Shown here: one piece after another, positions 34,435 to 43,462 of the stretch
How the letters are laid out: the number at the start of each line of letters is the position of its first letter
How positions within the stretch are numbered: position 1 is the first letter of the stretch
Source: Eledone cirrhosa
Taxonomy: Eukaryota
DNA length: 64,000 bases
Direction: 5' to 3'
Assembly: GCA_964016885.1 (NCBI GenBank)
Contig: OZ024755.1
Coordinates: 11,408,001 to 11,472,000, forward strand
Position numbers and translations under genes: made by a program
Notes under the pieces: model-generated
What the model was told of the DNA's origin: nothing
Seen by the model: only the letters and a program-made list of their open reading frames with translations
The model's database searches: none

Positions 34435-34479
<45 letters not shown>

Positions 34480-34598
34480 AGTTGAAAAAAATGAAAACGA
34501 AAAACGAAATTTCATTTCTCACTCTTAGTATGGCACTTACTTAAATGTAAGTATGTATGTATACGTACATACATATATGTATACAGACGTACAGTAGC

Positions 34599-34653
<55 letters not shown>

Positions 34654-34807
34654 CATGCAGGTACACATACATATATGCACGCATCAGTTTAGCAGACGCT
34701 TATTATAGCGCTCGCTTTGTTCGTTTGTCAACAAACTGAACAGCCTGAATTTATGCCATACGGTGTTAAGGCAACCACGTCACCTTTTTGTTCAACACTG
34801 ACACAGG

Positions 34808-34852
34808 AACGATGTACTAGTTTCAAGCTTGTTAGCTATCATCAGCACCGTT
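34808..34852 (-). ncRNA. Minimal type I hammerhead ribozyme (unit 1)
   Basis: Minus strand: AACGGTG-CTGATGA-t-AGCT(aaca)AGCT-t-GAAA-CTAG-TA-CATCGTT. 7-bp stem I, intact core, 4-bp stem II, palindromic ACTAGT stem III, GUA site. Confidence 0.85.
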
Positions 34853-35092
34853 TACCCATCTGCCAGATAGTTGAACGTTCGAAAGTATATACTTTCCTTA
34901 TGAAAATTAACGGCTGAGCAGCCTAATTTGCATATTGAGTGAGTTAAATCGGTCAGGCATACCGAAAACGATAAGTTGAAAAAAATGAAAACGAAAAACG
35001 AAATTTCATTTCTCACTCTTAGTATGGCACTTACTTAAATGTAAGTATGTATGTATACGTACATACATATATGTATACAGACGTACAGTAGC

Positions 35093-35145
<53 letters not shown>

Positions 35146-35299
35146 CATGCAGGTACACATACATATATGCACGCATCAGTTTAGCAGACGCTTATTATAG
35201 CGCTCGCTTTGTTCGTTTGTCAACAAACTGAACAGCCTGAATTTATGCCATACGGTGTTAAGGCAACCACGTCACCTTTTTGTTCAACACTGACACAGG

Positions 35300-35344
35300 A
35301 ACGATGTACTAGTTTCAAGCTTGTTAGCTATCATCAGCACCGTT
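35300..35344 (-). ncRNA. Minimal type I hammerhead ribozyme (unit 2)
   Basis: Identical to 34808-34852, offset by 492 bp. Confidence 0.85.
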
Positions 35345-35546
35345 TACCCATCTGCCAGATAGTTGAACGTTCGAAAGTATATACTTTCCTTATGAAAATT
35401 AACGGCTGAGCAGCCTAATTTGCATATTGAGTGAGTTAAATCGGTCAGGCATACCGAAAACGATAAGTTGAAAAAACGAACAAAGCGAGCGCTATAATAA
35501 GCGTCTGCTAAACTGATGCGTGCATATATGTATGTGTACCTGCATG

Positions 35547-35599
<53 letters not shown>

Positions 35600-35648
35600 G
35601 CTACTGTACGTCTGTATACATATATGTATGTACGTATACATACATACT

Positions 35649-35701
<53 letters not shown>

Positions 35702-36514
35702 TATAATGACCACACATACATATAATGTACCATACACACGATATATATGCATACATACAACATCCGTTATAGTGTATATAAAGTTAATTCATGGGTGAAA
35801 TTAACTGAAAGAAACATTTAGAATATACACCTCTCTCCTCTCAGTACTATGGAACTTTGTATATTCCTCTCTTTTTGTTTATATTACTAGGATTACGATC
35901 ACTATTATTACTATTATTATTAATGTTACTACTACTACTACTACCAGTAGTAGTAGTACTATTCATTTGAGGAATCTTTTAAATTTATTTGAATTTTCAT
36001 TTTTGTATTCGTTGAGCTCTTTAAAAATAACTTTGCTTACAAAGGAGAAAACAAATTTTAAGAGGTGGTTTCGGTTTCAAATCTAACTACACTACATGTG
36101 TTAAATCTGTGCAAGGAAATGGGGAGTACAAAATGACGAGAATGGAAAATTAAGAGGGTAATAATGGAAGAAATCAGAAAAAACACGGAGAAAAAGCAAA
36201 TGAAAAAATATAAAATAAAATATAAGTAAAGGAGGGATATAAGTAAAGGAGGGATACAAGAAGGGGTAAAACTAAAACCACATGGGGCCGAGTTTCAGTA
36301 AATATCTTATCAACAGACATGATTTATCGAGTTGGCAACATCACCAGACAATCCCCAAGTAAGTTTGTTTATTTATTTCTGAGATATTTAAGATATAAAA
36401 GCTTTGTTTATATCCCCAGACAAATTAGGTAGTTTAAAATGAAATAAAATATAAGCCCCTTTTTTTTCTTTTTTGGTAACAATATATGTAGTGATCCTAC
36501 AAACATTATATATG

Positions 36515-36883
36515 AGGGCGGTGGATTGGCAGTATCGGTAGAGGGTCGGACGCCATGCTTTGACGCAAAGAGTTACGGCCCTGACCATTCTGAGTTCAAA
36601 TCCCGCCGAGGTTAACTTTGCCTTTCATCCTTACGGGCTCGATAAAATAAAGTACCAGTAATACACTGGGTAATTTGCTGGCCTTGTGCCAAAAGTAGAA
36701 ACAATTATATATATACACAGAGGATTGGACGCCATGCTTTCTAGCAGTTACGTCCCTTTACGGTCTGAGTTCAAATCCCGTCGAGGTTAACTTTGCCTTT
36801 CATCCTTACGGGGGTCGATAAAATAAAGTACCAGTAATGCACTGGGTACTTGCTGGCCTTGTGCCAAAAAGTAGAAACAATTA
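36515..36883 (+). mobile_element. Two tandem S1 SINEs (36515-36707 full length; ~36720-36883 5'-truncated)
   Basis: Near-consensus S1; each is preceded or followed by ATTATATAT. Confidence 0.88.
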
Positions 36884-37432
36884 TATATATATATAGATAT
36901 ACATACACCTACATACATATAGACAAACACAAATATATAAAAGTGTGTGTGTTGTGACTCCGTCGGTTGCGACGACGGGTGTTCCTTCGAACAACAATAC
37001 AATCCTGCTCATAGAATTTATATGCAAGTGGCTCAGCATCTTACTGACACATATGTCCGTAGCACAGCGTGCTATATGAAATACAGGTACAACACATATA
37101 TATATACACATTCTTGTCACTGCCTTTTCAGCCCCATAGATTATATTCCTTTGTTAAATTTCAAATACCTGATGATGTCACCGGATTCATACTGAACCCG
37201 GTCAATGAAAAATTCATATTATAATAAATCTTTAAGGAATTACACCAGTCCAGCCTCCTGTTATTTTATAATAATTAACTCCGTACTCGCACCACCAGCA
37301 ACACAAACGAAGACGGGTGAGTTGCATTATGTCGAGTGCTCTCCATAATATTACATCGAGGTTGACTATACGGAATGACCAGTTCTATCCAGTGGTGAAC
37401 CAACAAACCTAAATGAATGTATATATAGATAC

Positions 37433-42662: not shown

Positions 42663-42879
42663 TATACATATATATAGGTGTATATATATAACATTTTGTT
42701 TCATCTCTTTTCGATTTCAATTAGAAGTACCCTAGGTTGTATGTACACCTTTTTGTCTTGTGTGTGTATTTAATCGAAAAGACTTTTTCTGTCTTATCGT
42801 AATACAAACGAAGAAACCGAACATTACTTATTCCGTCTATAAAACAAAGTCTTATGTTCTCGTCAATACCATGATGTTT

Positions 42880-43462
42880 GTCTGTTGGTACAGCACAGCA
42901 CTGGTTGCCTGTTGGTACAACACAGCACTGGTTGCCTGTTGGTACAACACAGCACTGGTTGCCTGTTGGTACAACACAGCACTGGTTGCCTGTTGGTACA
43001 ACACAGCACTGGTTGCCTGTTGGTACAACACAGCACTGGTTGCCTGTTGGTACAACACAGCATTGGTTGCCTGTTGGTACAAAACAGCATTGGTTGCCTG
43101 TTGTTACAACACAGCACTGGTGGCCTGTTGGTACAACACAGCACCGGTTGCCTGTTGTTACAACACAGCACCGGTTGCCTGTTGTTACAACACAGCACCG
43201 GTTGCCTGTTGTTACAACACAGCACCGGTTGCCTGTTGTTACAACACAGCACTGGTTGCCTGTTGTTACAACACAGCACTGGTTGCCTGTTGGTACAACA
43301 CAGCATTGGTTGCCTGTTGGTACAACACAGCATTGGTTGCCTGTTGGTACAAAACAGCACTGGTTGCCTGTTGGTACAACACAGCACTGGTTGCCTGTTG
43401 GTACAACACAGCATTGGTTGCCTGTTGGTACAAAACAGCATTGGTTGCTTGTTGGTACAACA
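42880..43462. repeat. 27-bp minisatellite, ~21.5 copies (GCCTGTTGGTACAACACAGCACTGGTT)
   Basis: Contiguous units with no spacers; few variant positions, arranged in blocks. Confidence 0.97.

Follow-up and report, generated by a model that had tools for sequence, protein, structure and literature searches.

A young, protein-free hammerhead-bearing element in TA runs of Eledone cirrhosa with two-armed, PLE-like insertions

The window analyzed here is a stretch of 64,000 nucleotides of the Eledone cirrhosa genome (contig OZ024755.1, positions 11,408,001 to 11,472,000). Between two TA runs it holds two head-to-tail units, the first 14 bp of a third and a 180-bp inverted partial copy, an anatomy that agrees exactly with the preliminary description. 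The two units agree at all 492 aligned bases, the sole difference being one TA dinucleotide, and the inverted segment (35474-35653) corresponds to unit positions 69-248 without a mismatch in 180 bases. Each unit carries a hammerhead motif on the minus strand and, as had been proposed, the predicted cuts bound a monomer of 492 nt (GC content 34%). The longest stop-free frame in the unit has 80 codons, and no match of the unit to a PLE protein was found at E < 0.8. The features are listed below; the concept of the "tail" is that of the accessible parts of PMC8557442 and PMC11167929.

34435..34479, no strand: target microsatellite (CA)n(TA)n, left, read from the sequence
34477..34970, minus: unit 1, 494 nt; arm 1 begins at its outer end (unit position 1), which bears the tail
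34477..34544, minus: 68-nt tail between two fixed start points, at one insertion end only
34971..35462, minus: unit 2, 492 nt, with an internal (TA)n at 35096-35145
34805..34857, minus: type I hammerhead motif, copy 1; predicted cut between 34815 and 34814, core start 34845
35297..35349, minus: type I hammerhead motif, copy 2; predicted cut between 35307 and 35306, core start 35337, U-U at the base of stem II
34815..35306, minus: predicted 492-nt monomer, the putative product of the two cuts
35371..35425, minus: candidate internal promoter block, suggested by a between-subfamily conservation of 93-94% versus 71% elsewhere
35463..35476, minus: start of a third unit, 14 nt; inner end of arm 1, overlapping arm 2 by 3 nt
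35474..35653, plus: arm 2, inverted, unit positions 248 to 69; outer end tail-less
35654..35699, no strand: target microsatellite (TA)n, right, read from the sequence

Within the candidate promoter block, just upstream of the ribozyme, we take positions 35418-35425 to be an octamer-like motif and 35374-35387 to be a 14-nt TATA-like palindrome.

The motif runs on the minus strand in the order stem I, CUGAUGA, 4-bp stem II, GAAA, the palindrome ACUAGU and the GUA cut. Helix I has seven pairs and a three-pair outer stem, helix II has four pairs closed by U-U, and helix III is the palindrome. The core boxes and the type I layout bear out the assignment as a hammerhead, but "canonical" was too strong a word for it: stem II has at its base U-U, or C-A in an older subfamily, in place of the conserved G10.1-C11.1, and the best Rfam match, HH9, reached 18.5 bits against a gathering threshold of 52 (E 1.4). 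Examination of the loop 1-loop 2 contact likewise found the core boxes intact, stem I bulged and G10.1-C11.1 absent. The description of the motif as a "minimal" PLE-type hammerhead is not upheld by the definition in the available text of PMC4209133, the helix sizes being nearer to those of canonical metazoan type I. The motif shares with the minimal PLE hammerheads of that paper the type I topology, a short palindromic helix III and the expected need for a dimer; unlike the 2014 minimal consensus, it is without a long helix II, the extra unpaired base and G10.1-C11.1, and its helix I is of 7 bp with the 3-bp outer stem. A dimeric helix III formed by the two ACUAGU palindromes, proposed earlier, finds no favor in the equilibrium model, in which the duplex is worth -4.8 kcal/mol and has an ensemble pairing probability of about zero. 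The local fold has a z score of only -1.05, with a competing register. Two further results were set aside: the z score of -8.5 for the circular fold, which is inflated by the TA run, and the Rfam miRNA matches, which are microsatellite noise.

Within the ribozyme, the subfamilies differ at N7, H17, loop II, the 10.1-11.1 position and one compensated pair of stem I. Across 10 hand-picked variants, 97% of the cells were paired versus 29-49% in slid controls. Compared with 30 older copies, the ribozyme region is 88% kept and the block upstream 93-94%, other parts of the unit falling to 71%. The conservation of the hammerhead across subfamilies is supported. The covariation itself is weak: two-sided change is confined to a single pair, and 18 of 500 shuffles do as well; of the dispersed multimers with hammerhead covariation that had been anticipated, the multimers (up to 13 units and beyond) and the conserved fold were found. 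Elsewhere in the window, weak hammerhead-core matches with no convincing stems occur at 37169 (plus) and 18119 (minus).

The 39-nt ribozyme motif has 10,185 exact matches in the 3.0-Gb genome assembly and a neighboring 27-nt pattern, which ends at the cut, has 14,890, against none for the reversed control of either. The first 100 ribozyme places were grouped by the analyst into 50 loci, which extrapolates to about 5,000 loci. Unit length is about 460-500 bp across the family. The best 40 of 1,376 candidates are about 100% identical over 356 nt, and near-identical copies lie on 10 large contigs, other or the same; a positional sample of copies is mostly 91-98% identical, and the older subfamily about 77%. 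The copies are dispersed and range from monomer to multimer, with arrays of 9, 13 and 16 near-identical units, and no LTR layout was seen among the inspected loci. By our estimate, ribozyme-bearing parasites of TA runs make up several megabases of the genome. In a sequence index the stretch returned 20 rows (16 organism labels, 15 studies, shares of 0.36-0.86), none of them an RNA data set. Of four indexed runs checked, it was present in X1 (4,852 contigs), with zeros, possibly false, for X4, X20 and X23; we make no claim of horizontal transfer or of independent support, because X1 may be the source sample.

The element is young, very abundant and protein-free, ordinary in kind and useful in mechanism. 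Its kind has already been described, since retrozymes, their link to PLEs and circular templates are covered, in the parts available to us, by PMC7229834, a 2026 preprint (bioRxiv 10.64898/2026.07.22.740005) and PMC4209133. What stands of the earlier suggestion of an undescribed family is narrower: the literature searched gave no account of this family, or of heterotypic arm pairing and a one-tail rule, while Repbase, Dfam, subscription papers and supplements lay outside that scope and may catalogue it. The accessible portion of PMC7229834 defines the animal retrozymes, shows circles in coral, mussel and axolotl, and names PLEs as the likely mobilizers. Like the metazoan non-LTR retrozymes described there, the present element consists of tandem non-coding units of low GC content with one type I hammerhead each, in dimers to multimers and thousands of copies. 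Unlike them, it has a unit slightly above the 150-450 bp range, an internal microsatellite and U-U or C-A at the base of helix II; and cleavage and circles, demonstrated for those retrozymes, are predictions here. The words "octopus" and "cephalopod" do not occur in the main text of PMC7229834 as available, nor does that text report fixed two-point ends or inverted second arms. The designation as a retrozyme-like candidate therefore holds as regards the hammerhead in each unit, the dispersed multimers, the low-GC non-coding unit and the PLE-type insertion, with the inverted piece reinterpreted as follows.

A positional sample of 50 loci gave 79 called outer ends, of which 73 fall at unit positions 1-6 (37 ends) or 65-75 (36 ends); the other six lie elsewhere, mostly in disrupted or older copies. 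Nearly all outer ends of this sample are in TA-rich context. In a set of 100 loci (14 top hits, the 50 positional loci and a further 36 positional loci), a tail-plus arm faces a tail-minus arm in 53 of the 54 two-armed insertions that could be paired; another 47 ends were single. The lone tail-plus/tail-plus case, L041, is a composite of a young (100%) and an old (90%) copy. Arrays start at fixed points and their inner ends are scattered; tandem copies accompanied by inverted truncated ones recur at the sampled loci, and the insertion in the window is a typical case of this two-armed geometry. The inverted piece had been read as a 5' inversion; it is instead a second arm, whose start is likewise fixed and lies one tail length away from that of the first. 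Fixed ends at two unit positions are the signature of the PLE tail; these ends and the rule for their pairing are new here, together with the locus-private variants common to both arms and the lack of stops at the cut described below.

The accessible text of PMC11167929 reports nicking of both strands of AT-rich targets by a PLE protein in vitro, with reverse transcription starting at two internal sites bounding the genomic tail; that of PMC8557442 describes the PLE tail, inverted copies, a microsatellite bias and non-autonomous head-to-tail PLEs (MRC1). The insertions described here resemble these PLEs in their two start sites bounding a tail, their AT-rich or microsatellite targets and their combination of tandem and inverted copies. 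The tail is of 62-68 nt here versus 30-40 nt there. In addition, the in vitro work, so far as available, saw no strand difference in the start site, whereas the opposite ends here use different sites in all but one of the two-armed insertions. This end rule is a sharp prediction for work in vitro, and the family is a natural test bed for PLE integration.

Some junctions at the sampled loci involve other elements. At L161 (about 4449) and L182 (about 4120), a tail-bearing arm of the present family abuts, with no TA between them, a short tail-less arm of another small family; these are apparent two-template chimeras that follow the same one-tail rule. At L162, L177, L158 and L200, the inner junctions of the arms run into a Neptune-type 3' end, a SINE-like repeat or a third small family, and may reflect chimera formation or nested insertion. 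L042 (2680-3570) is a one-armed insertion flanked by a direct duplication of about 70 nt that resembles a long target-site duplication.

The arms and units of a locus are closely related. With pieces below 88% identity or 60 nt left out, divergence was 0.83% between opposite arms (101 pairs), 0.76% between units within an arm (142 pairs) and 5.7% between loci (8,267 pairs). In 15 of 24 loci no other piece was closer than the opposite arm of the same locus, and microsatellite signatures are private to a locus and common to both its arms. Because arms and units share locus-private variants at low within-locus divergence, one haplotype was evidently copied repeatedly, and we infer repeated copying from a single molecule. 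The 27-mer ending at the cut was followed at its first 100 places, and none of them stops there: 98 continue for at least 11 nt, and the other two pass it on inspection by eye. Since the copies run past the cut site, cut linear monomers are not the template. A count of inner ends near the cut (1 of 79 versus 2.25 expected) was discarded as biased, since its loci had been selected for the ribozyme; the 27-mer test is fairer. In 34 loci with at least three units, 311 of 339 variable sites within a locus were singletons and 28 were shared, with at least one shared site in 7 of 16 loci that hold at least four units. L232 accounts for 18 of the 28, units of its opposite arms sharing phased runs, and L085 alternates with a period of two. 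These shared variants indicate that some templates were heterogeneous multimers, or that rearrangement or conversion came later. L037, L038 and L198 are multi-unit and two-armed without phased variants, as are most such loci.

Taken together, the fixed ends, the heterotypic arms, the shared variants and the lack of stops at the cut make it likely that the arrays were written at insertion by a PLE reverse transcriptase that was primed at two points of a single repeating template. We hold PLE-type pasting at two sites to be very likely. The element as a whole is probably a non-autonomous PLE (a non-LTR retrozyme) that borrows a Neptune-type RT/GIY-YIG protein for its insertion. The template would be a repeating RNA, most plausibly a circle made by the ribozyme, and we lean, with the same reserve, toward such a circle in most insertions. 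The bulk of the loci, the 13- and 16-unit arrays included, are explained by a monomer circle, with a heterogeneous multimer or later conversion needed for some. The available text of PMC4209133 already proposed circles as templates for copies longer than a unit. Under this scheme, the minus strand of an array would be transcribed from the conserved block upstream of the ribozyme, and two hammerheads are predicted to release a unit-length RNA that would then be ligated into a circle. The PLE protein, acting in trans, would nick both strands of a TA run, as the ends mapped genome-wide and the accessible part of PMC11167929 suggest, and cDNA would be primed at two internal sites 62-68 nt apart, one for each strand. 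Each cDNA would then pass the cut site and continue for 0.1 to 13 units, a pattern that is seen in the insertions, and the joining of the two cDNAs within the insertion would leave a tail-plus arm facing a tail-minus arm. More tentatively, there may be a division of labor in which two PLE subunits prime the two strands at different fixed sites on the ribozyme-made circle, roll independently and join head to head, the arrays being made in one event and the rule extending to the two-family arms of L161 and L182. If true, this reading ties retrozyme circles to PLE enzymes and supplies the missing second-strand step.

The serious rival shares the PLE-type pasting and takes as template a linear transcript that reads through an existing array and stays uncut, with a hammerhead that is slow, protein-gated or later-acting; we consider it unlikely, though well short of negligible. 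It likewise predicts no stops at the cut, the phased variants of L232 and L085 favor an uncut multimer, and the weak, non-canonical U-U fits a template that stays whole. According to the accessible text of PMC11167929, moreover, hammerhead cleavage is dispensable for PLE insertion in vitro: ribozyme mutants insert normally and uncut RNA is the dominant substrate. Yet arrays can only lose length when copying begins at an internal site, and near-identical insertions of 9, 13 and 16 units occur; phased variants are absent at most multi-unit two-armed loci (L037, L038 and L198 among them), and the ribozyme has been conserved while flanking unit sequence drifted to 71%.

Improbable, in our judgment, is the model of the 2026 preprint, in which solo PLE terminal repeats are later expanded into satellites by unequal crossover. 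The homogeneity of tandem units within a locus could reflect concerted evolution, and the period-two pattern of L085 is in keeping with it, but the arrays have starts at fixed priming points, scattered ends and an inverted arm of the same haplotype, they occur at thousands of dispersed loci, and no autonomous parent was found among the sampled PLE loci. As available to us, that preprint derives retrozymes from PLE terminal repeats and reports 8 of 9 Xenopus retrozyme dimers as uncleaved. We reach the same overall conclusion, and Neptune, found here, is with Poseidon one of its usual co-occurring clades. Its link rests on pLTR homology and co-occurrence in vertebrates, with later satellite growth favored, whereas in the present family the connection comes from insertion geometry, no pLTR homology having been found, and the arrays look born at insertion. 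Assembly duplication or a chance hammerhead-like sequence has a negligible probability and is effectively refuted for the family. The Rfam match is below threshold and the units are almost identical, as either would have it, but the copies are dispersed, number in the thousands and carry locus-private variants, and the fold persists in diverged subfamilies; with 10,185 exact matches against none for the reversed control, the motif is neither chance nor an assembly slip.

The genome also holds candidate autonomous PLEs, with frames of up to 938 and 1,096 aa that join a Neptune-type RT to a C-terminal GIY-YIG domain and have a CX4CX2C linker. The family of L075 has the 938-aa frame and a 61-nt tail; the 40 of its 1,720 candidates that were scored lie at 96-100%. 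Two Neptune-type insertions (L080 and L089) are themselves two-armed and heterotypic, with one tail each, and the hammerhead of another PLE family carries the same U-U. The preliminary description had named a PLE reverse transcriptase as a possible copier. The insertion geometry is of PLE type, as that would have it, but no partner was identified by sequence in the sampled PLEs. No sequence link was found between the unit and a PLE 3' end or protein at 50 GIY-YIG loci (from 150 scored of 10,595 candidates), the best end similarity to an autonomous PLE had p 0.05 among 10 end comparisons, and a comparison of PLE proteins with 93 + 36 element loci found no PLE frame attached to an arm. In the GIY-YIG search and at twenty long-frame loci, every unit copy was a separate insertion next to a PLE (L069, L085 and L086), and these loci were rejected as the source of a partner. 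The 3' regions of L075, L076, L080, L083, L084 and L086 represent a young Neptune-type family whose hammerhead has a U3-A8 core covariation, mentioned in the accessible text of PMC4209133.

In the literature as available to us, who mobilizes animal retrozymes and how PLEs finish their insertion are open questions. Both become testable in a family that offers young loci by the thousand and a 492-nt template on which two start points are mapped, together with young candidate proteins of Neptune type.

Other features of the window are of note. An inverted pair of another hammerhead-bearing small element lies at 47215-47325, joined at a break within the ribozyme (cores at 47265, minus, and 47272, plus). 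Three adjacent small elements lie between TA runs at 59700-60300; two belong to one family, which has a tailed layout with two ends of its own, and the third has a hammerhead motif at 59937. Several such small families seem to be present in the genome. A frame of 131 aa at 28249-28644 (plus) presumably resembles the endonuclease end of a non-LTR retrotransposon. Tandem SINE-like repeats, which we assume to be of octopus type, occupy 30822-31231 and 36505-36897, and a 27-bp minisatellite (21.7 copies, 96% matches) occupies 42878-43462.
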